Positions 13,239 to 54,648 of a DNA stretch of 64,000 bases are shown one piece after another. The DNA is from Escherichia coli (GTDB lineage Bacteria; Pseudomonadota; Gammaproteobacteria; Enterobacterales; Enterobacteriaceae). The stretch lies in NCBI RefSeq assembly GCF_003991155.1, contig NZ_CP031293.1; one strand, 5' to 3'. The notes below the pieces were generated by a model that was not told the origin of the DNA, made no database searches, and was given only the letters and a program-made list of their open reading frames with translations. Within the stretch, counting starts at the first letter, position 1; each line of letters begins with the position of its first letter. The position numbers and the translations under genes were made by a program.

Positions 13239-13306
13239 TTAACCTAATGATGAATGACGGTAAGCAACAATCTACCTTTTTGTTTCACGATTACGCGCAA
13301 CACCCC
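13239..13306 (+). pseudogene. sbcB: Displaced native 5' end of sbcB (first ~16 codons) left at prophage left junction
   Basis: ATGATGAATGACGGTAAGCAACAATCTACCTTTTTGTTTCACGATTACG encodes MMNDGKQQSTFLFHDY, then diverges into phage DNA and stops. Confidence 0.6.
13275..13287. repeat. attL core (13-bp identity with attR)
   Basis: TTTCACGATTACG identical to 53257-53269; flanks are imperfectly similar. Confidence 0.6.
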
Positions 13307-13348
13307 TGAGAACCGCCATAAACAAGGGTTTCATGATTTGTGATTTTA

Positions 13349-13375
13349 GTTTGGTACGCAATTTGGTACACAACA
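13349..13375. promoter_or_regulatory. Candidate integrase arm-type binding sites (left arm)
   Basis: Tandem TTTGGTACGC / TTTGGTACAC motifs, same motif repeated near the right junction. Confidence 0.4.
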
Positions 13376-13814
13376 CAATTTTCACTTCAGCGGGTAGTCA
13401 TCAAACTCACCATAACGCACTTCGTTGATGATGTACGTGATCACCAAAAATATCGCATCCGGACTAGTTCCATCTTCATGCGCAGGCATATGTTCATGCC
13501 TACCTGTCTGCAAACCAGTAATAAGCCATTACAGGGTGATAGTGATGCATCAACTACGTTAAGCGCAGAGAAATGATGCAGTGGTGGGCGGATTGGCTTG
13601 ATGAAAAGGTGGAGTGATCCACCTTAACCACTATCGAAGAGCACAAAGCCTTGCAATCCAGTGCAAAGCTTTGTGTGTCTCAGTTTTGTTTCATAGGTAA
13701 TCATGCGTTCACTACGATGCAAGAATCCATACCAAATTTTATTTAAAACTCACAAATACACTAGATAAAAACAATCCCGCAGTTTTCATGCGGGATATAC
13801 TGCATTTATTGCAA

Positions 13815-16292
13815 CTACATTGCCATTAATATAAACATAGCCAATTCGTCATAACGAATTCCGTAGCGTCCACCTGCTTTTTTTACAAGAATCATATTTC
13901 CTGTTTTATATTGAGAATAAATTTTCTCACCTGTATCAGGATCTGTGCTCTCTTCAGTTATCACCTCTTCATCCCATACGTCTGGCCATTCATCGTAACA
14001 CCAAAAAGCATATTGCTCAGGATTTAAACCATGCTTTCTAAGAATATCTCCTACGGTTTGAGCGCCAACTCCAAAATGATACCTTGATAACTCCAATCCT
14101 TTAAAATTAATCGACTCATTAAACCTGAACTTGCATATAATTCCCTTTATTTCCAGCGCAGCATCACGCTCTGCCTGAGTAATGTCATATATTGTTTTAA
14201 GTGTTTCATCTGATGTGCTTATAGTCCCGGATGCAGAATAAATCTGAGCCCATCTAAATGATGGTGCACCAAGAGATTTGCTGTTATCAATAATTGGTGA
14301 AAAATTACCTTTAATGGCAATATTTCCAGAGTCGCCGAATATATTAATAACTGTAGAGTCATCACCATGGTTTTTTACGCTTAAGTTTCTTGATAAAATA
14401 TTTATATCTTTGTTATACCCACTAACATTAATCCATCTTTTACCATCAATGTGATACCCGTAAATATTTCCGTTTGATTGTTCGTCAGGTGACTCTCTAA
14501 GAACAATAGCATCTACTCCAGACGACCATTGTATTTTTGTATCTGTAGGCCTCCAGTTCTTTATAATGAACGAACCATCAGTAAACTCCGTTTTTATTTG
14601 TCTATTGTCTACAAATGCGTCTCTTGGTTTAAACTCACTTGTGTTAACGCTGCTCTGAAGATCAGAAGCAAAAAATCTAAGATTTCCTGTATAACCCTGA
14701 GTCTCGGTCAGGTTATACGCAATCATAATTCCATTTTCAAACTCAGATGATGTTATTTTAACATCACGGCAATCACCAAAAATGCAATTTCCTTTATCAA
14801 ATGTTGTTTGAGCTTTGAATTTATCAAACCTTAAATTACGAACAGGGAAACCATCAACCTCTAATGCAAAGGATGCATGAAGGCCAAAGTATTCTGATGG
14901 CTTACCTGATGTATGATCAAGAGTAGTGGCTACTGTATTCTCAAAAACAGTCCCGCTAAAATTATTACCAATTGACGGAAACCTGATTACACTTATTGTA
15001 CCTTGTATTTCAGGAGAAATACCAGATAGTGTGATGTTAGTTCCATCAAATGATGCATCTGAATACGTATATACTGATTCACTGCCAGCAATTTTAAACT
15101 GTTTAACTGAAGTTATTCTCATCGACTTTTTATGTTTAAATGTCACTGAGCTTTCAGTATTACTTACAAGATCAATCTGAGGGCTATTCCTTATCGCGAT
15201 TCCTGACTGGACATAAACGTTATTAAAGTGCGTTTTTTCAGGATTTCCCTTCATTGAAAGGCTCCCGTCATTTTCTGTCAGTAGTAGTCCTTTTACCCTC
15301 CAATAGCCGACAATCTGTACGTTATCAATAACTGAATCACAGCTATCGTATACATGCAACCCTATATCCCAGTTATCACCCAATGAATAAGAATCAGGGT
15401 TATTGTATCCTTCAATACCATTTTTACTTACCATTATTCTCAGATTGCGTAACTGTGATGCCCTGTTGATACTAACAGCTACGCTCATGGCTTTTGGTGT
15501 AGCAGGAGTAACACCTACAGAATCTTCATTCGTAAACTCAGTGAACTTACAAGATATCCCTTCAACAATTTTAACCGGTCTTTCATTAGAGATGTTAAAA
15601 AAATATTTGTTTTTTTCTCCATCACCAGTAAATACAAGATGGGTTCCTTTACTCCAACTTTTTAATAATCTTTCAGGCGCTGGTCTATATGTATCCCAAT
15701 AATCAATGCCAGATCCAACCAGTGAACACCCCTCAGGAATGTTAATATTCTTCTTGATGATGCATATTCCTTCCGGAATTGTTATAACCGACCTTCCAGA
15801 GTTTAAAGCTTTAATAAAAGCATCTGAATCATCTGTTTCCCCATCTATTTTTGCTCCCCACCCTCTAACATCTCCACAATCTCTCCATCGTGCCATCTGC
15901 AACTCAGGATATTTTTTAGCGCCATCTGGATCTTCTAATTGCTGCCGTAGCTGATCGGGGTCATACTTCAGCACATTAGGAAAATAGAACTGCTGCGCAC
16001 CATATGCATCATAAACAGCCATAGAATGGCCTTGCACAGTTACAAACTTGGCTATTTGCCCGTTATATACCGGGTAACCAGCAGCGTTAATGATGATTGG
16101 TTGCGAAACAGGAACGTGAGAGCCATCTTCGTTCTCCACATAAACCTGAATCTGGTTTTCAGGATTTACAGGGTCAGTGTCAATTTTACCGATATAAATT
16201 TTGCCATTGGCAACCGCTTTAAAAGAACGTGCCATAGTGAAGAGTTGAGAAGGCATACTCACTACAACATTGGCATTTATCGAATCTGTCAT
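13815..16292 (-). CDS. Tailspike: P22 gp9-like head-binding N-domain, divergent receptor-binding domain, C-terminal intramolecular-chaperone-like domain
   Basis: 825 aa; N-terminus resembles P22 tailspike; SDETLK motif about 150 aa from C-terminus. Confidence 0.85.
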
Positions 16293-16391
16293 TTAATTTG
16301 CTCCAGATACAAGGAATCGCCGCAGCATGGCTACGGTGAATTTTGGGCATAAAAAACCCAGCCGAAGCTGGGTCGTTGCGTTGGTTATCTG

Positions 16392-17321
16392 TCAGTAGTT
16401 ATGTACTGAAGGAGGTAATTCTTTATTCTTAAGTCTCATCCATGCGGAAAGATTCGTTGGTCCGTCTGGCTCATTGATATCAACATCTCGTGTGTGATTG
16501 ATTAAAACGTCTCTCGCCATTCCGATAACATACGAGAACTCATGACCATAGTCGTAGCATCTGCCGGAATAGTTCGATTGAATTTGTTTTAATGCCGGAT
16601 ACAGTTCGCGGAATAACGCCTGTGAGCGGTTGGCATAATCCCATAACCATACAAGGCTGTTTGCTTCTTTTGCAGAAAGCTCGTTGGTTTTCTTCTCTTG
16701 TTTGCCAATGAACTCACCTTCAAGCGGAACGCGAGCAGCAAGTGACAGTGCTTCGGTAAACTGCTCATCACTGATTTCTTTGTACGAACATCCAAAATGG
16801 GATTTCAGTGACGACCACATGGTGATCATCGCCTTCGCCTGTTTTTCTTTTGGCAGAGACTGACCGCGACTCATGACGAGTTGTTTAATGGCTTCCTGCT
16901 GTTCAGTGGTGATTTTACCCGGCAACGCCTTTTTAGCTTTGCGTGGGTTAACTACATGGCCTTTAGTCCAGTACTCGTAGAGCACATCGTCACACTCTTC
17001 CTGATACTGGATTACCTTGTCGCGGATTTCAGGGCGGACTTTGTTTGGACTGATGGTTTGCAGCCAGCCAGCAAGTTTGCGAAGTGCCAAACAAATAATC
17101 TCACGGCACTGTTCATCACCAGGAAGCTGCATTGTGATTTTCACAATGGAGGTTTTAAACCGTTGCTTTATTTTCGTAAACTGTGAAGCCCAATCCATAC
17201 CCATACCTTCAACGATAGGTTTCATTGGGGTGTACGGCTCACCGTTGTGATTGACGACATAAAGCTCTGCGCCGTGGAATGGCACGTTGATAGTAGATAC
17301 TGCTGTTGCTATACTTTTCAT
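16392..17321 (-). CDS. ant: Antirepressor Ant (P22 immI)
   Basis: 309 aa, [24 protein letters not shown]22 Ant-like. Confidence 0.85.
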
Positions 17322-17386
17322 GTCAGTTTTTCCTCAAAATTTACTGGCGATTTAAGCCCGAGCTACTCGCAATAGCTTGGGCTTTA
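17318..17386 (+). ncRNA. sar: Candidate sar-like antisense RNA across the arc-ant intercistronic region
   Basis: Intercistronic hairpin GCCCGAGCTA..TAGCTTGGGC antisense to ant RBS; analogy to P22 sar; ends approximate. Confidence 0.3.
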
Positions 17387-17387
17387 C

Positions 17388-17534
17388 TCATTCTGGACAA
17401 ACAATTCCATCCTTAGCTACTGACTCCTTTAGTCTCCTCAATACCTCATTACTGAACGACCGATCATCCTTTTTCGCGGACTGCTCCAAAGCCTTTTCCA
17501 GCCATTCTGGCATCCTTAATGTCTTAACTTTCAT
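17388..17534 (-). CDS. arc: Arc-like ribbon-helix-helix repressor
   Basis: 48 aa from MKVKTLRMPEW with AAGGAG RBS; upstream of ant. Confidence 0.7.
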   Translation of the reverse strand: MKVKTLRMPEWLEKALEQSAKKDDRSFSNEVLRRLKESVAKDGIVCPE

Positions 17535-17646
17535 TTTTGCTCCTTTGCTCCTTTGTATGTGGTACGCATACATAGTATTTAGGTACGCATTGATAGTCAA
17601 TAGATACCTACATATCCTGTGGTAAATAATTATTCAGGATGCGCCG

Positions 17647-17898
17647 ATGTCTGATCGTAAGTACAAAAACCCTCAAGTGAATCTGAGGCTTCCTGTAGAG
17701 ATAAAGGAACGTCTTATTGAGCTGGCTGAGGCTAATTCTCGTTCATTAAATGCTGAGATGGTAGCAGCACTTGAGGCATGGACTGAAAAAAATAAACATA
17801 TTCAAGCACTAGATATTGCAACTATAGCATCGCGGTTGATAGAGCTTGAGCATGAGGTTGAGAAGTTAAAATGTATGCATGGCAACGGTGAAAAATGA
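17647..17898 (+). CDS. mnt: Mnt-like ribbon-helix-helix maintenance repressor
   Basis: 83 aa, NLRLPVEIKERLIELAEANSRSLNAEMVAALEAW; divergent from arc-ant. Confidence 0.7.
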   Translation: MSDRKYKNPQVNLRLPVEIKERLIELAEANSRSLNAEMVAALEAWTEKNKHIQALDIATIASRLIELEHEVEKLKCMHGNGEK

Positions 17899-18209
17899 AA
17901 CGCATCGCTATTTTGTTAATATTGTTCTTCTCTACAATAGTTTGCGCCAAACAAAAATCAGATAATGGCGATCTTAAAGGCCTGCAAGAACTCATGATAA
18001 CTTCGAAATTTGCTGGCATGTGCGGCACAATCAAACAAATGGCAACATTTCAAGAATCAACAAAAATGCCTGGCGGAGATGAGTTCTTACAGCGTTTTCT
18101 GACCACAGAGCAAGCAAGACTTGGAATGAATCCACAGGAGTTTCTTGAAGCATGCCAGAAGTCAATTTCAGCTTATACCAATTATTACAATCTAACTTCT
18201 GATAAATAA
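17895..18209 (+). CDS. Small exported protein of unknown function, translationally coupled to mnt
   Basis: 104 aa; ATGA overlap with mnt stop; signal peptide MKRIAILLILFFSTIVCA. Confidence 0.5.
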   Translation: MKRIAILLILFFSTIVCAKQKSDNGDLKGLQELMITSKFAGMCGTIKQMATFQESTKMPGGDEFLQRFLTTEQARLGMNPQEFLEACQKSISAYTNYYNLTSDK

Positions 18210-18234
18210 TAGAAAGGATTTTATAAATAACTTT

Positions 18235-18720
18235 ATGAAAAAATCACTATTAATTATCCCGCTTCTGCTGGCTGGATGCGCAAAAGTAAGTGACTACCAA
18301 GCAAGTTGCGAACAACGCTATCCAAAGCTTAGTGATATGGCTAATTGCCTTGATGCCAGCGTGAAGAACGACTCACGCATGGCATCAGCACCAACACCTA
18401 AGCTGTATGTCCTTGCTGCGAAGATGCTCGGGCAAGGTGTCGATGAAGGCAAGATAAGTGACGCACAGGCAAGACTTGAGCTTCAGAATCTTTATGTTCA
18501 ATTACAAAGCCAAGAACAAGCCCAACAAATAGCGCAAAGCCAAGCATTCCAGCAGGCTTTATTGAATTATCAGGCTGTAAACACAATGCAAGCGATCGAG
18601 CAAAAAGCGCGCCAGCCTGTTATAACTCAACCTTACCCAACACGCGTTGACACATATACAAACTGCAATTCAGGATTTGGAAACACCGTCACATGCAACA
18701 GTAGCAGCAACATTAGATAA
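18235..18720 (+). CDS. Lipoprotein of unknown function (lipobox LLAGC), Gln-rich C-terminal half
   Basis: 161 aa; MKKSLLIIPLLLAGC signal and lipobox; downstream of mnt in same orientation. Confidence 0.5.
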   Translation: MKKSLLIIPLLLAGCAKVSDYQASCEQRYPKLSDMANCLDASVKNDSRMASAPTPKLYVLAAKMLGQGVDEGKISDAQARLELQNLYVQLQSQEQAQQIAQSQAFQQALLNYQAVNTMQAIEQKARQPVITQPYPTRVDTYTNCNSGFGNTVTCNSSSNIR

Positions 18721-18722
18721 AG

Positions 18723-20885
18723 CTATTCATATTCATTCATACCGCTTAACGAGGCGACAATACCAGCTCTCGACAAGCGATTGAATTCATCGCTACCAAT
18801 AGCATCGCGTATTGCTTTTACGGCGGCTTTATTTGCCATAAATCTGCGTTCCGCCGCCGCTAATGCTTCTTTACTTCCGCCAGCTCTTACTGCTTTCGTG
18901 GCTTCCTGAACTGCTTTCTCTATCGCATATCGGCCGCTACGCGTGGTGGCAATTTTAGATACAGCACCTTTTAACCCGGCGCCAACTAAAGCACCTGCGG
19001 CAGCGCCTGCAATGCCCCCTCCTGCTCCACCAACAATGGCACCTGATGTTGAGTTGGCAATTGCATTTAACACTGTTGATGTGACGTTGGATAAACCGGC
19101 ATCCAGATCGCGTAGTACATTGGCAGTTCTCCCTGTTCTTTCAATATACTGCTGAGGCTTCACTGCTGCTCTTGCAAGAGTGCCATATGCATCAGCAATT
19201 CTTCCGAGTTCTGAGGAATATCTGCTAATGGCTTTTACATTTTGTGGGGTAAGTATCCCTGCGATATGGTTAATTCCTGCTGCATCAGCTTTGCCACCAC
19301 GTACACCATGCGAGATAGCATCTTGCAACATTGATGATATAGCAGGAACACGCTCTGATTCTGGCAGCGCGCGGATCATAGAATGGAACCCAGCAGGACC
19401 ATTAAGACCTTTAGCTGACGATGATTGAAGGGATTTTACTCCATTCGTAATCAGTGCATCTGTTGCCAAATCACGCCCGAAAACAGACTCTGCACTCTCT
19501 TGTGCTGATAACCTCGCTTTAGACAGATCATTAGCTTTCTGCCAGTCATCAAGAAATCCGCCGTTTTCCGCCATTGTGCGCATATCATCAGTAATTGCCC
19601 GGCGTATTTCCCCTGCTCTCCTTGCCGCATTTGCCTCTCCGCTACGCTTATATTTTTGCTCCGCATCAGCAAATTTCGCTCTCCATGCTTTCATGCCATC
19701 AAATGTTACCCCACCTTGATTGTTTGCCTGAACAAACTGTTTCATTTCAGGAGTAAGCGGTATGCCAGCAGATCGCTCTGCCTGAATAACGGCATTACCA
19801 TTTAGCATTCTTGCTTTTTGATTTGGCATTGTTGACCGCACGTCATCCCATGCCGCGCGCTCGGCATCCTTCATCTGATCAAGATTTTGAAGAATCCTTT
19901 GTTTTATAGCCGCACTTTTTTCTGATGCCGTTCCAGATGCGGCCCCAAATTCATCAAGGTTTCGACTTAACTTTGATGATATTTCGTTAAATGCTGCCTG
20001 ATGGGCGTCCTGAACAATTCCTGGTGTTGATGCCAATGCGCCTTCGGCTTGTGCAATTCCACGACTTCCAGATCGCATTCCTGGTGTTAATGCGTTTATA
20101 TCAATTCCAGCAGACTCAGCCGCTTTTGCTACATCTTCGGACACATTAGCGGCCTGACTGGCAATTGACTGACGCCCAGCACCTGACTTTGCCATCCTGG
20201 AAACATCATTAGCAGAATTCAGTGCTGCACCACCAAGAGCCTGTGAAACCCTTGGCGCAATAACGCGCCCGACACCTGAAAGAACGCCTTGAGCACCAAT
20301 ATTGATACCACCGTTAATGGCAGCATTTTGTGCAAAGTCGCCCTCCTGATTTGCAGCATCAGCAAGAGAACCTGCAATCATGTTTCCTGCGGAACCGATA
20401 TCTCCAGCGAGCTTTGCTGGCGCTCCAGCAGCTTTTGCCGCTGTGCCAATTGGCAGGAGATACCCACCAATTGTTTCACCGGCTTGCGCATAAGGGTCTG
20501 TCGGTCGATCGACTGGACGATAGACATCATCCAAAACCTTTGGGCCACCAAGCCCCTGGCTGATTGCATTAATCAGACTTGCGCCACCCTGCAATACGTC
20601 AAATGGTATGTTTACCAGACCACGACCAGCCTGTTCTGCAATTTGCCCTGCACTTTGACCACCTGTGAGCCAATCACCAGCTTGTTGCATCAATGATGGT
20701 TCTTCTTTCTGCTGCTGTGGCGGAGGGTATGCTGCATAAAACTGATCTCTTGCTTCAGCCCATTTGTCACCAGCCTTAGGGGCAACAACCTCATCAAAAT
20801 ATTGCGCTTGAGCCTGTGCTTTCTGTTCTTCAGTTAACGCCTGATACTGTGGAGAAGCGATAACATCTTTCCATGCTTTAGCCAT
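18723..20885 (-). CDS. Ejection/DNA-transfer protein (P22 gp16-like), enlarged
   Basis: 720 aa, Ala/Gly-rich; last gene of ejection-protein block. Confidence 0.7.
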
Positions 20886-22225
20886 TAATCACCCCATAAA
20901 GACGAGAAACCGGAATTATTGCTGTCGCTTCCTGATTTTCGCTCACTAACATATGTGTCATAACCTGATGAACTATATCCCATTGATTCAGCCTCCCTTG
21001 CTGCAACCTTTTGAAATACAGAATATTGCGATCGGATTTCAGATAACTGTTTTCTGACGACCTCTTCAGGCTGTGTTATATCGAGTTTCGCGATCAGGTT
21101 TTCCAGTTTTTGGCCTTCAGCATTGGAGAGGCTACCCATACCTCGCATAGTCTGCACGTTCTGGACAAACGCACCCGACTTTAATTCTTCTATCGCATTA
21201 CGGTTTGCAAGCCCTTCAGCACTTGTGAAGCCATCTATATTTCTTCCTTCGAAGCGACCGATACCTTCAAGCTCCTTCTTACCAAGCAAAGAATCAATTT
21301 TCTCTATCCCTCGCTCACCAGTAATCAACGCATTGTTGTAATTATTGTTGCCATCAAGCCATCTCTTAGCCTGAGACATTCTGGCTGACGTTGCAGCTTT
21401 ACCGGTTAGAGGATCAATTCCCGTCGCTGCTATCTGTGAGTTAAGAGACAAAACATCCATATCCTGAAGTTGTCCTGCTCTTTCAAGGGCCGCCTGTGAC
21501 TGCTTAAACACATACTTGTCGTGATTCAGTCTTGCCATTTGAGCCTTATAGGAAAGATCCTGCCCCCTAATAGCCCTCGCATTCGTCATGTCATTATTGC
21601 GAATGGTTTCGTTAATTCTTTGCTGTTCCTGCTGGCGACCAACCATCTTGTCCTGAACATTGAAGTAATCAATCGGACCAAGAGCAGCCATTCCGAGGTG
21701 ATCAACAAACTCACCAAATCCTGAAGGATTCTGCTGATACATCTGAGCAACGTTGTTAGGGTCAACGCCGACGCGCGCCAGTTCCTTGGCGTTGTTTTGC
21801 AGCCATGATTGCATTGCTTCTGGAGACGAGGCCGCAAGGCGTGCGCCAGCTGCTAAGGTGCCGATAGAATTACGCTGCTCTTCATCAATGAATCCCATGC
21901 CTTTACGAACGGATTCAATCTGGTCTGGATATTGAGTAGCCAACTGACGCAAAGCACCGCGATCACCAGACGCATAAGCATTAGCGTATGCCTGCTGAAA
22001 TTCTTTCTGCCGCTGAGCCTGCTTTTCCTGCTGAAACACCCCCGCAATACCTGAAAGTCCTTGCAAAGCAGTCAGCCCAACATTGTTAGCGCCTGAACGC
22101 TCAATATCATTGTTCTGCCTGATAAGCTGAAGCGTATTGCCGATGTCATTTACGCTCGGAGCGTTTGAGTTGACGCCGCCGATACCAGCCAACAATCCGC
22201 CATTTGATCCTTGCCAAGTAGCCAT
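20885..22225 (-). CDS. Ejection protein (P22 gp20-like)
   Basis: 446 aa; gene order and overlap with flanking genes. Confidence 0.65.
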
Positions 22226-22234
22226 GATTACCCC

Positions 22235-22927: not shown

Positions 22928-22929
22928 GG

Positions 22930-43164: not shown

Positions 43165-43221
43165 ATGTAAGTATTTCCTTAACAAATAAGAAGTTATGCG
43201 CATCAACTTATGCGCGTTGTA

Positions 43222-43266: not shown

Positions 43267-43272
43267 ATTTGC

Positions 43273-43458: not shown

Positions 43459-43472
43459 AGACTCGCTCCGAA

Positions 43473-44795: not shown

Positions 44796-45095
44796 ATGAC
44801 AGTAGTCATTACATATCTAGCTGACGATAACGCCAGAAATCGCCGCAGAGCACGCAGGCAGGCTCAACGTGAACAGGCAATGCAAGAACAGCGACTGGCG
44901 CGAAAGATTGCGCTAAAGCTCTCTGGTTGCGTCAGAGCAGACAAAGCAGCATCACTCGGAAGCCTTCGCTGCAAGAAGGCAGAAGAAGTCGAGAGTAAAC
45001 AGAACCGTATTTACTACCGCAAGCCACGCAGTGAAATGGGTGTGACTTGTGTTGGTCGCCAGAAAATGAAATTAGGCAGCAAACCACTTATTTGA
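44796..45095 (+). CDS. N-like antitermination protein (P22 gene 24-like)
   Basis: 99 aa, arginine-rich motif NARNRRRARRQAQREQ. Confidence 0.7.
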   Translation: MTVVITYLADDNARNRRRARRQAQREQAMQEQRLARKIALKLSGCVRADKAASLGSLRCKKAEEVESKQNRIYYRKPRSEMGVTCVGRQKMKLGSKPLI

Positions 45096-45106
45096 GAGGA
45101 ATTAAT

Positions 45107-45730: not shown

Positions 45731-45903
45731 TCGGCCTTTATTTTTGGCACTAACAACAGAATAAACACTGCACTGTGTATTCATTCCAACGAGTGAATAC
45801 ACGGAGCAATGTCGCTCTTAACTAAACAGGAGCCGACTTGTTCTGATTATTGGAAATCTTCTTTGCCCTCCAGTGTGAGGGCGATTTTTTTGATGGAGGA
45901 TAT

Positions 45904-46872: not shown

Positions 46873-46895
46873 TAAACCAACATAAGGAACCACCC

Positions 46896-47027
46896 ATGAT
46901 TTACGCAATCGCGGGAGGCGCTCGCATGGGTGCCTTCCAACTAAATGAATCTTTACTTGAACGAATCACCCGTAAATTACGTGACGGATGGAAAAGAGTT
47001 GAGGTCTTATTATGCGCAATGAAATAG
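46896..47027 (+). CDS. cIII: CIII-like protease inhibitor
   Basis: 43 aa, ESLLERITRKLRDGWKR core like lambda CIII. Confidence 0.65.
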   Translation: MIYAIAGGARMGAFQLNESLLERITRKLRDGWKRVEVLLCAMK

Positions 47028-47164
47028 CCATCAATCACCAGATGCTTCGTGCTGCACAGAACAAAGCAGTAATAGCCAGATTTATTGGTGATTCAAAAAT
47101 GTGGCTTGAAGCAAATAAAGCAATGAAATCAGCTATCAACCTTCCGTGGTATCGCAGGAAATGA
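47012..47164 (+). CDS. kil: Kil-like host division inhibitor
   Basis: 50 aa, ARFIGDSKMWLEA resembles lambda Kil motif. Confidence 0.55.
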   Translation: MRNEIAINHQMLRAAQNKAVIARFIGDSKMWLEANKAMKSAINLPWYRRK

Positions 47165-47331
47165 GTTTTACAGATAACTGGTCAGACGAAGAATTCATTC
47201 GTCAGATGAAAGAATTAGTCGGTAACGAAGGAGATATGCATGTCACTTGCAACCACAGTGAAGGAGAGCAAGTTACAGAGACGCATGTACACGCAGCAGG
47301 CGTTAATGTATCGCCAGAAGGGAGATCGTGA
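47161..47331 (+). CDS. Small hypothetical protein, ATGA-coupled to kil
   Basis: 56 aa from MSFTDNW; overlaps alternative ORF 47240-47410 in another frame. Confidence 0.3.
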   Translation: MSFTDNWSDEEFIRQMKELVGNEGDMHVTCNHSEGEQVTETHVHAAGVNVSPEGRS

Positions 47332-47410
47332 AGGTGTTCGCGTATTTTTAAATGCGGCAAAGACTGAAGTATTAAATCAGCGTTATTTCCTTGGGCCGTG
47401 TCCATTCTGA
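47240..47410 (+). CDS. Small hypothetical protein immediately upstream of annealing protein gene
   Basis: 56 aa from MSLATTVKES, AAGGAG RBS, stop 9 nt before next ATG. Confidence 0.3.
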   Translation: MSLATTVKESKLQRRMYTQQALMYRQKGDREGVRVFLNAAKTEVLNQRYFLGPCPF

Positions 47411-47418
47411 GGTGAATT

Positions 47419-48126
47419 ATGGATTTGAACAAATTCGATGAACCATTCAGCCCTGAAGATATCGAATGGCGAATACAGCAAAGCGGTAAAACACGCGATG
47501 GCAAGGTGTGGGCTATGGTGCTGGCTTATGTCACGAACCGGGCAATCATGAAACGCCTGGACGATGTTTGCGGCAAAGCAGGATGGCGCAATGAATACCG
47601 CGATATTCCCAACAACGGCGGAGTTGAATGCGGCATATCAATCAAGATTGATTCCGAATGGGTAACCAAATGGGATGCTGCTGAAAACACGCAGGTAGAA
47701 GCCGTCAAAGGTGGTCGTTCCGGTGCAATGAAGCGTGCTGCCGTTCAATGGGGAATCGGTCGGTATCTGTATAACCTTGAGGAAGGTTTCGCACAAACAT
47801 CTCTCGATAAAAAGCAGGGATGGCACAGGGCAAAACTGAAGGATGGAACAGGATTTTACTGGCTCCCTCCATCGCTGCCGGGATGGGCAATCCCAGCATC
47901 AGATAACAAACCATCACCAGAAAATACCAACCAGAAATCTCCATCGGTTGACTGCGAACAAATCCTGAAAGACTTCAGCGATTATGCATCAACAGAAACT
48001 GACAAGAAAAAACTCATCGAGCGTTATCAGCGTGACTGGCAATTAATGGCTGGCAACGAGGAGGCGCAGGCTAAATGCGTTCAGGTAATGAACATCAGAG
48101 TTAACGAACTAAAACAGGCGGCATAA
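47419..48126 (+). CDS. Rad52-family single-strand annealing protein
   Basis: 235 aa; AAVQWGIGRYLY motif. Confidence 0.65.
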   Translation: MDLNKFDEPFSPEDIEWRIQQSGKTRDGKVWAMVLAYVTNRAIMKRLDDVCGKAGWRNEYRDIPNNGGVECGISIKIDSEWVTKWDAAENTQVEAVKGGRSGAMKRAAVQWGIGRYLYNLEEGFAQTSLDKKQGWHRAKLKDGTGFYWLPPSLPGWAIPASDNKPSPENTNQKSPSVDCEQILKDFSDYASTETDKKKLIERYQRDWQLMAGNEEAQAKCVQVMNIRVNELKQAA

Positions 48127-48633
48127 ATGGCAAGCAGAGGCGTAAATAAGGTGATTATCCTTGGTCGGGTAGGACAAGACCCGGAAGTTCGATACTCACC
48201 ATCAGGAACAGCGTTCGCTAACCTGACAATAGCCACGTCAGAACAATGGCGAGATAAAAATACTGGCGAGCAAAAGGAATTAACTGAATGGCATCGTGTT
48301 GCTGTATCCGGGAAACTGGCTGAGGTCGTGGGGCAGTATGTGAAAAAAGGTGATCAGATTTATTTCGAGGGAATGCTGAGAACCAGAAAGTGGAAAGACC
48401 AGTCAGGGCAAGACCGTTACACAACCGAGGTTCATGTCGGAATTAATGGCGTGATGCAAATGCTTGGCGGCATTGGCGACAGCAAACAACAAGCAGCCAG
48501 CAGGCAATCACAGAAGCCACAGCAGCAATCATCACCAGCACAACACAACGAACCTCCGATGGATTTTGACGACGATATACCCTTTGCACCAGTAACTCTC
48601 CCCTTCCCTCGTCACGCTATTCACGCAATTTAA
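48127..48633 (+). CDS. ssb: Single-stranded DNA-binding protein
   Basis: 168 aa; OB-fold N-domain, Gln-rich linker, acidic DFDDDIPF tail. Confidence 0.9.
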
Positions 48634-48646
48634 TCAGGAGAAAATC

Positions 48647-48940
48647 ATGCCAGCGCCTCTGTATGGTGCGGATGACCCGCGCCGCTGTTCCGGCAATTCC
48701 GTATCGGAGGTGCTGGATAAATTCAGGAAAAACTACGACCTGATAATGTCGCTACCGCAGGAAACGAAAGAGGAAAAGGAATTTCGCCATTGTATATGGC
48801 TTGCAGAGAAAGAAGAACGCGAGCGAATTTACCAGACATCAATCCGACCATTCCGCAAAGCCACATATACCCACTTCCCTGAAATTGACCCGCGCCTGCG
48901 TAATTACCGCTCACGCTATGGCGCTATCAGTAATGACTGA
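48647..48940 (+). CDS. Hypothetical protein
   Basis: 97 aa ORF in early-left operon. Confidence 0.4.
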
Positions 48941-49114
48941 GGAATTTACCATGAGAGGACTTGCATACAATCCCGGCATTCTTCCGGCAGAAATGATTAT
49001 TCGCCAACGTGTAAAGCCAATGCCATCGAGAGAGGAATTGCTTAAGAGAAATTCTTTTCCATCAGTAAATCAAAACAAATATCTGAATGCGATGTGGCGT
49101 AAAGGAGGTAAGCA

Positions 49115-49741
49115 GTGAGCAAGATTGATTATCAAAAGCTTCGTGAAATCGCTGAAAAAACAAAAATTGCTGGTGAAACACCCGTAATGCCTTTCGATCA
49201 GCGAATTAATGCGCTTAACGATTTTATGAAGCACTTTTCGCCAGATATCGCGCTGGCATTGTTGGATGAACGGGAAAGAAACCTGCAATACATCAAACGC
49301 CGCGACCAGGAGAACGAGGAAATTGCGCTAACGGTAGGGAAGCTGAGAGTTGAGCTGGAAGGCAAAGACAGCAAAATAGCCAATCTTACCGCCGAACGCG
49401 ATGCTCTTCGTGAAGGTGAGATGGGCGACGCTAGGCATAGCAACACACGGGCCGCAGCTGATATCTACTTCCAACTGGTCGAGGAGTGCGAAATTCCTGC
49501 TGGCGGATCTCTGGTCGAGTACGTTGACGATATGCGCGAGAAGCTGGAAGCCGCAGAGAAGCGCATTGCTGAGCTGGAGTTGCTGGAGGTTGTGCTTCCG
49601 CAATGCTATAGCATGTTGCATCGCGTCGATTTTGACGAGCCTTACCACACTGAAATGGTTTACAGGCAGCATCAGGTTCTTGAGGCACTGCACAACGCTG
49701 GAATAAACGTCACCGAAGCAGGTAAAGGAGAGGCATCATGA
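49115..49741 (+). CDS. Ead/Ea22-like protein
   Basis: 208 aa, central coiled coil. Confidence 0.5.
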
Positions 49742-50241
49742 GCACTATCACAAGAGAATGGCTGCAGCAGGCTATCAACGATTATGAAAGCGTTCGTGAT
49801 GAGCTTCCTTTCGGGCTTGATGATTACCAGGGGAATATCCTGGCTGCCCTGCGTATCGCACTGGCATCGCTGGAAGCAGAGCCGGTGGCGTGGAAGGTAA
49901 CATTCACGCAAATTGACCGTGAATATAACACGTTCACTGGTATGTATTCTGACAAAGCAGAAGTCGAACGGTGGGTGCGGCTGCATAAAGCATGTAATTT
50001 TCGGGCAGATATAACACCGCTTTATACCGCCAAGCCAGTGCCGGTAACTCCGGATGGTTGGATAAGCTGTAGTGAGCGAATGCCGAACGACGCGCAGTGG
50101 TGCGTAGTGAACACAGAATACGGGTATTACGTGCAATGCTGGTCTGAAGGTCAAGGGTGGCTTGGTGATGATATCAGCATCCCTGAATGCGATGTAATCA
50201 ATTGGATGCCGCTACCAGAACCACCGCAGGAGATGAAGTAA
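49738..50241 (+). CDS. DUF551-domain protein
   Basis: 167 aa; C-terminal WISCSERMP...NWMPLPEPP. Confidence 0.5.
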   Translation: MSTITREWLQQAINDYESVRDELPFGLDDYQGNILAALRIALASLEAEPVAWKVTFTQIDREYNTFTGMYSDKAEVERWVRLHKACNFRADITPLYTAKPVPVTPDGWISCSERMPNDAQWCVVNTEYGYYVQCWSEGQGWLGDDISIPECDVINWMPLPEPPQEMK

Positions 50242-50525
50242 TGGACTCCTTCGCGAAATATACGATTATTGACTGGATTGCCTTCCTTCAGGTTTTGCTC
50301 ATCTGGTTTTATATGGCTTACAGGAGTGGACAGTGGATTGTCAGTGTAGCCTGTAGCAGGGGATGGCGTTGGTGGAACCGAAAGAATAAAAAAGCACTGG
50401 CCTTGGATTCGTTTTACGAAGCATTCAATCTTAACAGCCTTCAGCCTGGTTCTGTCATTGTAGTCACCACTCAAAGCGGCATGACGATACAAATTCACAA
50501 GCCAAAGGAGGAAGGTCGTGGCTAA
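50241..50525 (+). CDS. Hypothetical small membrane-associated protein
   Basis: 94 aa from ATG overlapping upstream stop (TAATG). Confidence 0.35.
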   Translation: MDSFAKYTIIDWIAFLQVLLIWFYMAYRSGQWIVSVACSRGWRWWNRKNKKALALDSFYEAFNLNSLQPGSVIVVTTQSGMTIQIHKPKEEGRG

Positions 50526-50799
50526 CCTGCAACTTGCCGTCAAAGGTGAATACTTCGACGCCATGATTCGCGGGGAGAAAACGGAAGAGTATCGCCTGTG
50601 CAATGACTACTGGAATAAACGCCTCGTTAATCGTAAGTATGACCGCCTGATTATCACAAAGGGATATCCGAAGCGCGACGATTCCAGCCGCAGAATTGAC
50701 GTCCCGTATGACGGATATGAAATCAAGACAATCACACATCCGCACTTCGGCGATAAACCGGTAACGGTATTCGCGATAAAGGTGAATATCAATTGCTAA
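50518..50799 (+). CDS. DUF3850/ASCH-like protein
   Basis: 93 aa, EYRLCNDYWNKRL pattern. Confidence 0.45.
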   Translation: MANLQLAVKGEYFDAMIRGEKTEEYRLCNDYWNKRLVNRKYDRLIITKGYPKRDDSSRRIDVPYDGYEIKTITHPHFGDKPVTVFAIKVNINC

Positions 50800-50912
50800 A
50801 TTAGTAGCATAGCATAAAGATGCTTGCATTAATGAAGTGTGTATAATAATGCCTCATCAATAGTAAACTACTGAAATAGCAAAAAAAATGCATATTAAAG
50901 AGGATTCGAAAA

Positions 50913-51104
50913 TTGAAAATGTTCATGCAAATAGACAGACGCATAGATATTAATGGCAATTCATACTTAGTTAGATGCGAAGAGAGGCCTAACGGTGAGT
51001 GGCGTGTATATGATATTGACCGTAAGATCAATATCAGCACCATGAACAAAGACACTGCCTTTGATGAATGGAAAGCTGAAGCTAAAAAACAACATAATTC
51101 GTAA
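50913..51104 (+). CDS. Hypothetical protein
   Basis: 63 aa ORF in AT-rich stretch. Confidence 0.3.
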   Translation: MKMFMQIDRRIDINGNSYLVRCEERPNGEWRVYDIDRKINISTMNKDTAFDEWKAEAKKQHNS

Positions 51105-51183
51105 AATTACAAAAACCCTAACCAATTGATGGATTTCTTTTATCTGAACTCGCTACGGCGAGTTTTGTTTTATGGAGATGATA

Positions 51184-51352
51184 AATGCACTTCCGAGTCA
51201 CAGGAGAATGGAATGGAGAGCCATTCAACAGAGTTATCGAAGCGGAGAACATCAACGACTGCTACGACCACTGGATGATATGGGCGCAGATAGCACATGC
51301 AGACGTAACCAATATTCGAATTGAAGAACTGAAAGAACACCAAGCCGCCTGA
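51184..51352 (+). CDS. Small hypothetical protein followed by terminator
   Basis: ~55 aa (MHFRVTGEWNGEPF); hairpin CCGCCTGATGGCGG plus T-run after stop; coordinates +/-1. Confidence 0.3.
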
Positions 51353-51375
51353 TGGCGGTTTTTTGGGGGTAGTAG

Positions 51376-51567
51376 ATGGCTGCAATTCACATTGTATCAA
51401 TAACATGCAATGCAATTCAGATAGTTGCTTGCATTATCTTTGTTTTCTCAATCATTCGCTCCAGACGATATTCTCCAGCAATTAACCGACATCCTGCACA
51501 AGTTGAAGCCGTCAGGATGGCTATAGAGTTACGAAATGAGATGAATAAGGCATTAATGGAGATGTAG
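51376..51567 (+). CDS. Small hydrophobic hypothetical protein
   Basis: 63 aa ORF with N-terminal hydrophobic stretch. Confidence 0.25.
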   Translation: MAAIHIVSITCNAIQIVACIIFVFSIIRSRRYSPAINRHPAQVEAVRMAIELRNEMNKALMEM

Positions 51568-51691
51568 AAACCATTCACTGACAAACATTAAGAGTGGAAA
51601 TAAAGAAATCACACCGCCTCACACTCGATGAGGCCTGTTCATATCTGATAGAGCCGCTATATGGCGGTTTCTTTTTGCCTGGAGAATTAAG

Positions 51692-51883
51692 ATGACCGAT
51701 ACCAGCCTGATTCCTGAGAAAGAAGTGATGAACAAGCTCGGTGTTTCATCACGTCAGACAATCTGGAACTATACCAAACGGCACGGATTTCCGAAGCCAG
51801 TCAGAACCCACCCCAAATCATACCTTCGTGAAGCTGTTGAAGGGTGGATTCTTAACGGTGGCGTTAATCAGAAATGCTCCTGA
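51692..51883 (+). CDS. xis: AlpA-family excisionase / DNA-binding regulator
   Basis: 63 aa with HTH (LGVSSRQTIWNYTKRHGFPKP); adjacent to integrase. Confidence 0.7.
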   Translation: MTDTSLIPEKEVMNKLGVSSRQTIWNYTKRHGFPKPVRTHPKSYLREAVEGWILNGGVNQKCS

Positions 51884-53042
51884 TGTGCCAGAACAATTTA
51901 TCAGCGTGAAGCTCATACGCTTTGCGCTGAGCCTCTATCCAGTCGTGTTTATTGTATACGGACATTATCCCGCCAAGTTCATGACCGAGCATTCGCTCAG
52001 TAACATGAGGCTCGACATTCATCTCGGACAGACGTGTAACAAGCGTTCTTCTGAAATCGTGTGTTCGCCAGTAACCTAGATCCATCCCTCCCCTTATTCT
52101 ATTTACGAATCGGTTGGCTGCAGCGATGCTGATCGGTTTGTTTATGTCTTCTCCAGGGAAAAGAACATCATTGTACGTTGTCATGGCCTTTTCGAGGAAA
52201 GGCTTAATTTGTTCGAAGATTGGACGGCGGATAGCATTACCCATCTTGCTATGCTCTTTCGGTACGGTCCATACGTTTTCCAGCAGGTCAAATTCTGTCT
52301 TTTTTGCCAGCCTAAGCTCTGAGAGCCTCGCCCCCCACAGCATAAGCATCTGATGAAGTAGCTTATTTGACGTAGACGCACGGCTTCTTTCAATAGCAAG
52401 CCAAATCTTAGCCAGTTCGTGATACGACAGTACACGATCCCCTACCTCAGCGCGGGAGCCGAAGTCCCTTGGTTGGATGCTCATAATTGCGCAACTATCT
52501 ATCAACTGACGCCGCATGCACCAACTTATTGCTGATCTTAGTTGACTTAGCACCTGCCTTGCTCGGCGTGGATTATCTCTTTCTTCTTCGGTAAGCAGGT
52601 CAACCCATTGCTTAACCGTGATAGAAGATGCCGGACGATTAGGGAAGGCGTCATGCATGCGCTTCATAACCGTTGATCGGTAAAGTGCCTGGGTCTTTTC
52701 TCTGAGAGTTGTAGAGACGTAGTTGTCGAACCAGTAGTCGAGACACTGGGCGACCGTCATGGAGTTCTCCACCTTCTCTTCAAAATAAGTGCGTGGATCC
52801 GTTCCTGAGAAATAGAGCTTTCGCAAGTCAGCAGTGATCTGTCTGGCATCCTTCAAAGACATGGATGGGTATCGACCAAGCCCAAGTCGATTAGGCTTGC
52901 CATGCCAGCGATAGCGGTACTGGAACTGGATGACCCCCTTCGGTGAAATTCGTACGCTGAGGCCATCGGCATCAGCCACTTCTTGTGGGCCCGAATATGG
53001 TTTACCATAAATAGTACGAAGTTTTGTGTCGCTTATAGCCAT
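51864..53042 (-). CDS. int: Tyrosine site-specific integrase
   Basis: 392 aa; C-terminal HDFRRT...LGH catalytic region; next to right junction. Confidence 0.9.
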   Translation of the reverse strand: MAISDTKLRTIYGKPYSGPQEVADADGLSVRISPKGVIQFQYRYRWHGKPNRLGLGRYPSMSLKDARQITADLRKLYFSGTDPRTYFEEKVENSMTVAQCLDYWFDNYVSTTLREKTQALYRSTVMKRMHDAFPNRPASSITVKQWVDLLTEEERDNPRRARQVLSQLRSAISWCMRRQLIDSCAIMSIQPRDFGSRAEVGDRVLSYHELAKIWLAIERSRASTSNKLLHQMLMLWGARLSELRLAKKTEFDLLENVWTVPKEHSKMGNAIRRPIFEQIKPFLEKAMTTYNDVLFPGEDINKPISIAAANRFVNRIRGGMDLGYWRTHDFRRTLVTRLSEMNVEPHVTERMLGHELGGIMSVYNKHDWIEAQRKAYELHADKLFWHIRSISD

Positions 53043-53050
53043 AAATAATA

Positions 53051-53097
53051 TTTGGTACGCTCAGAAATAATGGTTTGGTACACATCTGGTACACAAT
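53051..53097. promoter_or_regulatory. Candidate integrase arm-type binding sites (right arm)
   Basis: Repeated TTTGGTACGC / TTTGGTACAC / TGGTACACAA motifs between int and core. Confidence 0.4.
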
Positions 53098-53223
53098 ATC
53101 ACATGGACAACAGCGCACAGTAAACAACTATATTTGACGTTCGTAGACATACTCAGGTGAAAAAATGGTTGTTTTTCGAGTTATAACAGACAGTTAATTA
53201 ACTACAGTGGACAATGCTAGACA

Positions 53224-54648
53224 ATGACAGACACAGATAAACAACCTACCTTCCTCTTTCACGATTACGAAACCTTTGGAACGCACCCCGCGTTAGATCG
53301 CCCTGCACAGTTCGCAGCCATTCGCACTGATAACGAATTCAATGTCATCGGCGAACCCGAAGTCTTTTACTGCAAGCCCGCGGATGACTATTTACCCCAG
53401 CCTGGAGCAGTATTAATTACCGGTATTACCCCGCAGGAGGCACGGGCGAAAGGAGAAAACGAAGCCGCGTTTGCCGCCCGTATTCACTCGCTTTTTACCG
53501 TACCGAAGACCTGTATTCTGGGCTACAACAATGTGCGTTTCGACGACGAAGTCACACGCAACGTTTTTTATCGTAATTTCTACGATCCTTACGCCTGGAG
53601 CTGGCAGCATGATAACTCGCGCTGGGATTTACTGGATGTTATGCGTGCCTGTTATGCCCTGCGCCCGGAAGGAATAAACTGGCCTGAAAATGATGACGGT
53701 CTACCGAGCTTTCGCCTTGAGCATTTAACCAAAGCGAATGGTATTGAACATAGCAACGCCCACGATGCGATGGCTGATGTGTACGCCACTATTGCGATGG
53801 CGAAACTGGTAAAAACGCGTCAGCCACGCCTGTTTGATTATCTCTTTACCCATCGTAATAAACACAAACTGATGGCGTTGATTGATGTTCCGCAGATGAA
53901 ACCCCTGGTTCACGTTTCCGGAATGTTTGGGGCATGGCGTGGCAATACCAGCTGGGTGGCACCGCTGGCGTGGCATCCTGAAAATCGCAATGCCGTAATT
54001 ATGGTGGATTTGGCAGGAGACATTTCGCCATTACTGGAGCTGGATAGCGACACATTGCGCGAGCGTTTATATACCGCAAAAGCCGATCTTGGCGATAACG
54101 CCGCCGTTCCGGTTAAGCTGGTGCATATCAATAAATGTCCGGTACTGGCCCAGGCGAATACGCTACGCCCGGAAGATGCCGACCGACTGGGAATTAATCG
54201 TCAGCATTGCCTCGATAACCTAAAAATTCTGCGTGAAAATCCGCAAGTGCGTGAAAAAGTGGTGGCGATATTCGCGGAAGCCGAACCGTTTACGCCTTCA
54301 GATAACGTGGATGCACAGCTTTATAATGGCTTTTTCAGTGACGCCGATCGTGCAGCAATGAAAATTGTGCTGGAAACCGAGCCGCGTAATTTACCGGCAC
54401 TGGATATCACTTTTGTTGATAAACGAATTGAAAAACTGTTGTTCAATTATCGAGCGCGCAACTTCCCGGGGACGCTGGATTATGCCGAGCAGCAACGCTG
54501 GCTTGAGCACCGCCGCCAGGTCTTCACGCCAGAGTTTTTGCAGGGCTACGCTGATGAATTGCAGATGCTGGCACAACAGTATGCCGATGACAAAGAGAAA
54601 GTGGCGCTGTTAAAAGCGCTTTGGCAGTACGCGGAAGAGATTGTCTAA
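53224..54648 (+). CDS. sbcB: Exodeoxyribonuclease I; first ~11 codons supplied by the prophage
   Basis: 474 aa; N-terminus MTDTDKQPTFLFHDYETFG differs from the remnant MMNDGKQQSTFLFHDY at attL. Confidence 0.9.
   Translation: MTDTDKQPTFLFHDYETFGTHPALDRPAQFAAIRTDNEFNVIGEPEVFYCKPADDYLPQPGAVLITGITPQEARAKGENEAAFAARIHSLFTVPKTCILGYNNVRFDDEVTRNVFYRNFYDPYAWSWQHDNSRWDLLDVMRACYALRPEGINWPENDDGLPSFRLEHLTKANGIEHSNAHDAMADVYATIAMAKLVKTRQPRLFDYLFTHRNKHKLMALIDVPQMKPLVHVSGMFGAWRGNTSWVAPLAWHPENRNAVIMVDLAGDISPLLELDSDTLRERLYTAKADLGDNAAVPVKLVHINKCPVLAQANTLRPEDADRLGINRQHCLDNLKILRENPQVREKVVAIFAEAEPFTPSDNVDAQLYNGFFSDADRAAMKIVLETEPRNLPALDITFVDKRIEKLLFNYRARNFPGTLDYAEQQRWLEHRRQVFTPEFLQGYADELQMLAQQYADDKEKVALLKALWQYAEEIV
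53257..53269. repeat. attR core (13-bp identity with attL)
   Basis: TTTCACGATTACG inside sbcB codons 12-16. Confidence 0.6.

Follow-up and report, generated by a model that had tools for sequence, protein, structure and literature searches.

A new combination of known lambdoid modules in a P22-like prophage at the start of sbcB in Escherichia coli

Introduction

The epsilon34 paper calls the early operons "highly mosaic," a result of exchange with lambdoid phages at large, and gives Q of P22 and of epsilon34 as 99% identical to lambda Q (PMC2629481). Phage Sf101 has likewise been called "highly mosaic," most of its proteins being more than 90% identical to those of 12 lambdoid phages (PMC4159516). 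Here we describe a prophage in the 5′ end of sbcB, the gene for exonuclease I (ExoI), within a window of 64,000 nucleotides (nt) from Escherichia coli (assembly GCF_003991155.1, contig NZ_CP031293.1). All coordinates are those of the window, and + denotes the strand as given. The prophage combines known modules, among them a known integration cassette, in a new way, but the kind of phage to which it belongs is thoroughly described. No new biology is needed to explain the region, which adds a further case to a lambdoid mosaicism that has been described for decades.

The described systems differ in how the integrase gene, int, is placed and expressed. In lambda (NC_001416), int and xis are co-transcribed from PL and attP lies downstream of int. 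In P22 (AF217253), int and xis are co-linear with PL, and integration is at thrW (PMC2629481). In KplE1, the promoter of the IntS-type integrase overlaps att and is repressed by Int and by the recombination directionality factor (RDF), as was shown experimentally; a promoter overlapping att was predicted for 61.5% of tRNA-associated integrases (PMC2951348). P4 Int/Vis is cited in that paper as similar to KplE1. Finally, the type 2851 module has a 13-bp attP core, CGTAATCGTGAAA, upstream of int, an Int about 99% identical to that of 2851, HK544, or Sf101, and insertion in the 5′ end of sbcB, according to the Sf101 paper (PMC4159516). What we say of phage 2851 is drawn from that paper and from GenBank records.

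A P22-like prophage between dacD and sbcB

The prophage occupies 13283-53269, between dacD and sbcB. It is bounded by an imperfect direct repeat of 30 nt (13266-13295 and 53240-53269; 26 of the 30 positions identical), inside which an exact 13-bp core, TTTCACGATTACG, recurs at 13283-13295 and 53257-53269 with a core-to-core spacing of 39,974 bp.

13266-13295, + strand: attL, the imperfect 30-nt repeat with the exact core TTTCACGATTACG at its end

The core is the reverse complement of the attP core published for Sf101 and 2851 (PMC4159516). The extent proposed in the initial annotation (13275-53269), which agrees with the 30-nt repeat pair, therefore gives the true ends of a single prophage. 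The left flank (1-13044) has PduL, PduO, PduP, PduQ, and PduS by Pfam, and the sizes of neighboring open reading frames (ORFs) fit pduJ-V; the host is thus a pdu-positive E. coli. Between the pdu genes and the prophage lie yeeX, yeeA, sbmC, and dacD, and on the right follow sbcB, yee genes, and the his leader and operon.

The lambdoid functional order is present (int/xis, recombination, N, cI, cro, cII, O/P, nin, Q, lysis, virion), as is the divergent PL/PR arrangement with a Q-dependent pR′. The sole departure is the inverted int. Essential genes occur in single copy, in canonical lambdoid/P22 order, and match full-length homologues. The element appears to be a complete P22-like prophage of about 40 kb at the start of sbcB, and by its sequence it is typed as Lederbergvirus. 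Very probably it is a P22-like patchwork, its modules recombined from the gene pool shared by enterobacterial lambdoid phages.

Mosaicism was measured against nine phages by blastn per 500 bp, by a map of high-scoring segment pairs, by per-protein identity, and by coverage with a greedy cover. The share of the prophage covered at no less than 90% nt identity was as follows.

APC_JM3.2: 54%
CUS-3: 43%
Dewey: 43%
Sf101: 31%
HK544: 28%
Sf6: 26%
HK620: 13%
lambda: 12%
P22: 1% (48% at any identity, mostly 70-88%)

The mosaic of exchangeable modules that the initial annotation had proposed is borne out by this coverage. The best single phage reaches only 54%, six phages jointly account for 84%, and the alignment gave no uniform similarity to one known phage. 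At a coverage of at least 80%, neither half of the prophage was found in any phage record or in any of 5,426 complete E. coli genomes.

All the genes named in the initial annotation are present. Its division of them into P22-like and lambda-like sets fails, since Q, S, ninB/E/F/G, and pR′/qut resemble P22 and lambda equally. Modules are indeed joined, but the junction of "P22-type" with "lambda-type" DNA is not a special one, because P22 itself has lambda-type Q, pR′/qut, S, and ninB/E/F/G. Immunity is P22-type as claimed (cI 92% and cro 95% amino acid (aa) identity, with three intergenic differences in OR). The lysis genes are lambda-like in S and R but not in Rz (61% aa to lambda), and the tailspike is P22-like in its head-binding domain (114 aa) but not in the rest of the protein. 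The ejection proteins gp16 and gp20, taken to be P22-like, are instead of CUS-3, HK620, or Sf6 types. Two of three suggested junctions were recovered: 32622-33803, with a breakpoint interval at 33301-33867, and 51568-51883, with a breakpoint between 51364, where similarity to lambda, CUS-3, and Dewey stops, and 51615, where that to HK544 starts. The third, 35316-35748, has no P22/lambda junction; it holds a swap of about 160 bp of P22/HK544 type after pR′ (35487-35648).

Two other explanations of this patchwork have to be weighed. Along the region the best-matching reference shifts sharply and repeatedly, and the 80% mark is reached by no phage and no E. coli genome on its own, as might be expected of two adjacent or nested prophages or of an assembly chimera. 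Tandem prophages or a chimera were rejected, however: only one att pair is present, and no essential gene is duplicated. The spacing of that pair is typical of P22-like genomes (38.3-41.7 kb in the references), every essential function occurs once in the canonical order, dacD and sbcB are normal chromosomal neighbors, and long blocks across the supposed junctions are contiguous in APC_JM3.2, an isolated phage, and in HK544 and Sf101. That the region is anything other than one phage genome is hardly credible. It is also very unlikely that the element is a cryptic, non-inducible remnant, such as a dead P22-like prophage that gained a type 2851 int cassette. Several ORFs do lack an assigned function. 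But the virion, lysis, regulatory, replication, and integration genes all align over about 100% of the length of their homologues, pac, pR′/qut, OR, and the cII box are intact, and no insertion sequence (IS) elements were found among the ORFs of the region, nor any tRNA genes. Moreover, the plaque-forming phages Sf101 and APC_JM3.2 have the same int cassette on P22-like genomes. A P22-like patchwork in one genome thus remains the preferred reading.

Comparison with described phages

The closest relative by coverage, APC_JM3.2 (MG197996, Lederbergvirus), shares the P22-type procapsid, packaging, and connector genes (21689-32621, 96% nt), the block of lysis, pR′, Q, and nin (33868-38526, 96% nt), and the convergent AlpA/int/attP cassette (51652-53269, 99% nt). 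Its tailspike body, gp16, immI, and immC are different, as are its replication genes, which are of primase/helicase type, and most of its PL operon. Since this phage already pairs the same virion, lysis/Q/nin, and int blocks, the pairing highlighted in the initial annotation is not new. The patchwork, including the "backwards" integrase, is the normal and already described architecture of this phage group.

CUS-3 (CP000711) contributes another set of likenesses: cII, cro, and cI are 100% identical in aa, N, O, and the DnaB-type helicase 99-100%, gp16 99%, gp26 97%, ant 91%, and mnt 93%. Coat, portal, and terminase of CUS-3, on the other hand, are of a distinct type (25-34% aa or no match), its Q is of phage-21 type, its tailspike is an endosialidase, and its integrase is of IntS type, with integration at argW and attP placed between xis and int. 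The phages with the type 2851 module (Sf101, 2851, 1717, HK544, mEp234, and HK140) share Int (98% aa) and the AlpA-like protein (100% aa), but the rest of their genomes is that of HK97-like siphoviruses or Stx phages, or has CUS-3-type virion genes (Sf101), and only 28-31% of the prophage is held in common at no less than 90% nt identity.

P22 agrees in gene order throughout. The exact pac site, TerS (100% aa), TerL (93%), c2 (92%), cro (95%), Q (96%), the DnaB-type helicase (90%), abc2 (95%), a near-identical OR, the pR′ terminator type, and ninB/E/F/G all link the two. Yet just 1% of the prophage matches P22 at no less than 90% nt identity; coat, portal, and scaffold are at 72-85% aa, N is of another type, and the endolysin is of the lambda R type rather than the gp19 type. 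P22 also has gtrABC, sieA, and sieB, which the prophage lacks. Lambda shares Q, S, R, ninB/E/F/G/H/I, and cII (89-100% aa) and matches in pR′/qut and the cII box, with 12% of the prophage at 95-99% nt. Unlike P22, it has no virion genes in common with the prophage, and it also differs in immunity, in N, in replication protein P, and in the recombination genes. In sum, the comparison fixes the boundaries and the type of the element and predicts its immunity (P22/CUS-3), its packaging (P22 pac), and its integration (type 2851, sbcB).

The integration cassette and the rebuilt sbcB

The right end of the prophage and the arm beside attL have the following features.

51651-51670, + strand: hairpin and T-run resembling a terminator, 21 nt ahead of the start codon of the AlpA-like ORF
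51692-51883, + strand: AlpA-like helix-turn-helix ORF of 63 aa, its 3′ end overlapping that of int by 20 nt
51864-53042, - strand: P4-type tyrosine integrase of 392 aa, identified by Pfam and catalytic motifs
53043-53269, no strand: int-proximal attP/attR arm with three arm-type repeats, the candidate int promoter, the phage-borne sbcB start (53224), and the core
53052-53060, 53075-53083, and 53086-53094, + strand: int-proximal arm-type repeats, 10-52 bp upstream of the int ATG
13351-13371, + strand: two arm-type direct repeats, TTGGTACGC and TTGGTACAC, in the arm beside the attL core

The integrase is indeed convergent with the AlpA-like gene and on the opposite strand to the PL operon, as had been noted earlier. 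It has the Pfam domains Arm-DNA-bind_3 (PF13356, DUF4102; E 4.4e-18) and Phage_integrase (PF00589; E 3.2e-17), residues R239, H328, R331, H354, and Y363 match the catalytic residues of tyrosine recombinases, and the protein is 98% identical in aa to the Int of HK544 and Sf101. The AlpA-like ORF matches PHROG 66, "excisionase and transcriptional regulator" (E 1.9e-8), and its product is 100% identical in aa to HK544 and Sf101 proteins named "AlpA family" in RefSeq; the protein is presumed from these matches to be the RDF.

The 5′ end of int faces the att core, and 214 bp separate the int ATG from it. The motif TTGGTACRC has exactly five exact matches in the 64-kb window, and four of the five lie within about 205 bp of the att cores, all on the + strand. 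With one further copy that has a single mismatch, these four flank the cores in the same orientation (13351, 13363, 53052, 53075, and 53086), as expected for putative arm-type Int sites.

By sequence match, the AlpA-like gene, int, and attP are the known "type 2851" cassette that targets sbcB. The cassette (51615-53239) is 98-99% nt identical in 27 phage records, among them 2851 (98.8%), 1717, several Stx1 and Stx2 phages, HK544, mEp234, HK140, Sf101, and APC_JM3.2. The HK544 record itself annotates "attP ... (type 2851)" upstream of int and the convergent "AlpA family" gene. Given this annotation and the 27 near-identical records, the convergent layout is a constant and annotated trait of a module that is very common. 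At a coverage of at least 80%, the cassette occurs in 527 of the 5,426 complete E. coli genomes (about 10%), Stx2c prophages included, and in the matches listed it adjoins sbcB.

Integration rebuilds the 5′ end of sbcB, the core containing the codons for F-H-D-Y of SbcB. The native start (ATGATG at 13247, encoding MMNDGKQQSTFLFHDY) is stranded at attL together with its upstream region, and the intact 474-aa sbcB at attR begins at 53224 with phage-borne codons (MTDTDKQPTFLFHDY). The phage thus supplies the start codon and the first 11 codons. Because this end of the gene is phage-borne, the promoter and ribosome-binding site in the lysogen must also be phage DNA (53043-53223), and about 10% of E. 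coli strains may therefore have an altered, phage-controlled exonuclease I.

How int may be expressed

The initial annotation held that int has a promoter of its own in the int-attR interval. The need for one stands: no co-oriented prophage gene lies upstream of int and sbcB is divergent, so that int requires its own promoter in the 197-bp interval between its start and the core. As Int is required for excision and the DNA upstream is divergent, this promoter should lie inside the 53043-53256 arm. A search of the int-att interval for a near-consensus sigma-70 promoter found none. The best candidate for the int promoter (Pint) is TTTACT-18-(TG)GATATT at 53124-53095 on the - strand, which has an extended -10. 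It abuts the arm repeats, and transcription from it would start there, near 53088.

A promoter in this position would not be unusual. With an Int of P4 type, its 5′ end toward attP, and arm repeats around the core, a private promoter that overlaps att is what the published paradigm leads one to expect, and by analogy we infer that int has one. In the KplE1/HK620 IntS-TorI and P4 Int-Vis systems, too, the int promoter region overlaps the att arm with its arm sites, and int and the RDF gene are not co-transcribed (PMC2951348). The geometry differs: in KplE1/HK620, attP lies between the RDF gene and int, and integration splits the two to opposite ends of the prophage, whereas here both genes are at one end, convergent, with an overlap of 20 nt. 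The Int here is only 22% identical in aa to the IntS type. An int promoter that overlaps att is a common arrangement, established by experiment (PMC2951348), and nothing special.

The geometry is established: a P4-family Int recombines the 13-bp core inside the sbcB codons for F-H-D-Y, attP lies upstream of int, and there are arm-type repeats on both arms. The course of events that follows is proposed. In the prophage, int would be transcribed from its own weak promoter in the int-proximal att arm; a Pint inside the att arm would probably be repressed by Int, and possibly by the RDF, as for KplE1 IntS and P4 Int. The AlpA-like gene closes the PL operon and has a terminator ahead of it, so that its product would appear only once induction and N antitermination had taken place. 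Excision would be governed by the supply of RDF and not, as in lambda, by co-transcription of xis and int.

Several points weigh against this account. The near-consensus sigma-70 scan of 51300-53400 gave no site with at least 9 of 12 matches, a relaxed scan gave candidates of only 7-8 of 12, and the best Pint candidate scores a weak 8 of 12. The available copies of the cassette are all 98-99% identical, so that conservation cannot pinpoint regulatory elements. The AlpA-like ORF reaches only 17.8 bits with Pfam Phage_AlpA (PF05930), below the cut-off of 21, and its role as RDF is based on homology and position. Finally, in the circular phage genome int is downstream of, and co-oriented with, the tailspike gene, and late read-through could therefore reach int.

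The last point can be made into an alternative in which int has no private promoter, is expressed only by late read-through from the tailspike gene across attP in the circle, and is silent in the prophage. It accords with tailspike, attP, and int lying on one strand in the circular permutation and with the lack of a near-consensus promoter upstream of int. Polymerase modified by lambda Q also reads through terminators. We nevertheless consider it unlikely. Excision needs Int, and in the prophage the DNA upstream of int is taken up by sbcB, which points the other way. Between tailspike and attP stand a terminator hairpin (13774-13796) and a further palindrome, ACAAAGCCTTGCA...TGCAAAGCTTTGT (13642-13675), the latter between the tailspike terminator and attP and homologous to a sequence of HK620 and CUS-3 annotated as the terminator of the excision transcript. 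The analogous att-proximal int of KplE1 and, by citation in the same paper, that of P4 have autoregulated promoters (PMC2951348). A cII-dependent int promoter across attP, as annotated in HK620 and Sf6, was also considered: an exact TTGCN6TTGC is present on the correct strand at 13653-13666. It was rejected, being half of the terminator-like palindrome at 13642-13675 and without a -10 at cII-type spacing.

Another idea is that the conserved convergent pair, overlapping by 20 nt, may itself be a regulatory device. After induction, N-antiterminated PL transcription would cross the AlpA-like gene and then the whole of int in antisense, and the synthesis of Int would be lowered or timed by transcriptional interference or by RNase III cleavage. 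If true, this would be a functional analogue of lambda sib retroregulation arising from a different geometry. We regard such antisense or interference control of int by PL read-through, or alternatively an altered, phage-controlled expression of sbcB in lysogens, as a speculative and rather doubtful proposition. The residual value of the locus is in three matters: the regulation of int when it converges on the RDF gene, a possible effect of the phage-rebuilt 5′ end on the expression of sbcB, and the divergent receptor-binding domain of the tailspike.

Virion, packaging, and tailspike genes

The virion genes (13815-32621, - strand) form a cluster in P22 order: TerS, TerL, portal, scaffold, coat, gp4, gp10, gp26, gp14, gp7, gp20, gp16, and tailspike. 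In P22 gene numbers, the order is 3-2-1-8-5-(orf)-4-10-26-14-7-20-16 followed by the tailspike, and all 13 genes are matched to P22 (tblastn, 43-100% aa).

26264-32621, - strand: P22-type procapsid and packaging genes (coat, scaffold, portal, TerL, TerS)
18723-26080, - strand: gp16, gp20, and gp7 (ejection), gp14, needle gp26, gp10, and gp4, a block that is itself mosaic
13815-16292, - strand: tailspike, 825 aa, with head-binding, pectate-lyase-like, and Peptidase_S74 domains
13774-13796, - strand: hairpin like an intrinsic terminator, directly after the tailspike stop codon and marking the end of the late operon
33366-33968, - strand: orf200 (PHROG 872), a stand-alone module between the virion and lysis blocks

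Identity to P22 rises from coat (72% aa) through portal (78%), scaffold (85%), and TerL (93%) to TerS (100%); to coliphage Dewey, coat, scaffold, portal, and TerL are at 98-100% and TerS at 82%. In the window segment 31500-32621 (- strand), where TerS is 100% identical in aa to P22 gp3, the TerL gene matches P22 at 96-98% nt in its 3′ part, whereas the adjoining portal, scaffold, and coat genes are at about 70-82% nt. The contrast points to a recent exchange of the segment for packaging specificity. The pac sequence of P22 (22 bp), confirmed in the P22 record, is present exactly at 32327-32348 inside TerS, at the place corresponding to that in P22, and headful packaging from it is predicted.

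The gene for gp20 is a chimera of CUS-3/HK620 and Sf6 types. By aa identity, gp16 (99%) and gp26 (97%) are closest to CUS-3, and gp7 (99%) to Sf6, Dewey, and Sf101. The head-binding domain of the tailspike (Pfam Head_binding, E 1.2e-65) spans aa 4-114. The receptor-binding body (13815-15935, - strand; GC content 36-38%) has a pectate-lyase-like domain and, at the C terminus, an intramolecular chaperone of the Peptidase_S74 family. The best of its matches in 50,697 phage records is at 79% aa (Phi05_1387 B), followed by a protein of Escherichia phage SD2 (57%) and a Vectrevirus tailspike (46%). So divergent a receptor-binding domain could define a new host-range specificity. The gene orf200 is an orphan module that makes up the breakpoint interval 33301-33867; of the nine reference phages, none has any of it beyond the 3′ end.

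Lysis, pR′, Q, and nin

34068-35315, - strand: lysis cassette S, R, Rz, and Rz1, with a dual start (MKM) in S and a lambda-type transglycosylase as R
34109-34315, - strand: Rz1, embedded in Rz, with lipobox VAGC
35611-35706, - strand: pR′ (TTGACT-17-TAAATT) and qut, then a P22/HK544-type early terminator, by alignment with lambda, P22, and HK544
35749-36372, - strand: Q, 100% aa to lambda and 96% to P22 gp23
35749-39497, - strand: Q and the nin region (ninI, ninH, ninG, ninF, ninX, ninE, a DNA methyltransferase, and ninB)

S and R are 99% identical in aa to lambda, and S is 90% identical to P22. Rz is chimeric (61% aa to lambda Rz, 92% to HK620 Rz), being lambda-like only in about the first 250 nt of the gene; lambda similarity begins at 34288. 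The -35 and -10 of pR′ and the qut site are common to lambda, P22, and HK544, but from about +20 the sequence is the P22/HK544 version and not that of lambda.

The nin genes span 36369-39497, without lambda ninC and ninD. Identities in aa to lambda and P22 are 99% and 95% for ninG, 89% and 97% for ninF, and 95% and 91% for ninB, and ninB/E/F/G as a set are at 91-97% to P22. The ninX gene is of P22 type (52% aa), and the methyltransferase is of Sf6/HK544 type (97-98%).

Replication, immunity, and the PL operon

40253-42573, - strand: replication genes for a DnaB-type helicase and an O-like initiator
42871-44189, both strands: immunity region with cII (- strand), cro, OR, and cI/c2, 100% identical to CUS-3
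43273-43458, - strand: cro, 95% aa to P22
43459-43538, no strand: OR, nearly identical to P22 OR
43539-44189, + strand: cI/c2, 92% aa to P22 c2
44796-51567, + strand: PL operon with N (CUS-3 type), a TolA-like coiled-coil gene, ORFs of the kil/cIII region, erf, an ssb-like gene, abc2, and ea-type ORFs

The helicase is of the P22 gp12 type (90% aa) and 100% identical to that of CUS-3. Inside the O-like gene, iterons of the CATGTGCGG type, spaced by 12 nt, occupy 42018-42145, and this array is presumed to be the replication origin, as in lambda and CUS-3. An exact cII box, TTGCGTTTGTTTGC, is found at 43142-43155 (+ strand). The 80-bp OR region differs from P22 by three intergenic substitutions, the stretch around OR1 being identical, and a P22/CUS-3 immunity specificity is predicted. 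The PL operon is highly mosaic; erf is 100% identical in aa to Sf6 and abc2 95% to P22. An ORF of about 205-227 aa (PHROG 1965; 45047-45730, + strand) lies in a segment of 40% GC between N and the TolA-like gene, and among the nine reference phages it is matched only in APC_JM3.2.

An immI-type region and neighboring exported proteins

16392-17898, both strands: immI-type region with ant, a sar-like RNA, an arc-like ORF, and mnt
16392-17321, - strand: ant, with P22_AR_N/C domains (Pfam, E 7e-45 and 5e-30)
17322-17388, + strand: sar-like antisense RNA, between the arc-like ORF and ant
17388-17534, - strand: arc-like ribbon-helix-helix ORF (Pfam Arc, E 3.9e-5), upstream of ant
17647-17898, + strand: mnt, with an Arc-like domain (Pfam, E 3e-10)
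17895-18720, + strand: two secreted/lipoprotein ORFs co-oriented with mnt, in the position of P22 sieA

The P22 organization of immI is kept and the sequences have diverged (42-58% aa to P22). Ant is 58% identical in aa to P22 and 91% to CUS-3, and Mnt is 93% identical to CUS-3. The Rfam match to sar is below threshold (29.3 bits against a gathering score of 43) but full-length and correctly placed. Its fold has a z-score of -5.9, and a promoter-like site, TTGATA-17-TATACT, precedes it at 17287-17315 (+ strand). At Rfam gathering thresholds no phage RNA was found within the prophage, and at E of 0.5 or less only this sub-threshold sar.

The two exported ORFs, orf104, whose 104 aa include a signal peptide, and orf161, whose 161 aa include the lipobox LAGC, matched only PHROGs 19844 and 6067, to which no function is assigned, and nothing in Pfam, PADLOC, or the nine reference phages. 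Superinfection exclusion or conversion is a possible role for them. Pfam gave no match for orf78 and orf82 either, and PADLOC run on ten accessory ORFs gave no match to a defense system. Outside the prophage, Rfam matches at gathering level mark two ordinary chromosomal features: the small RNA STnc240 (57674-57748, - strand) and the histidine operon leader (60046-60169, + strand).

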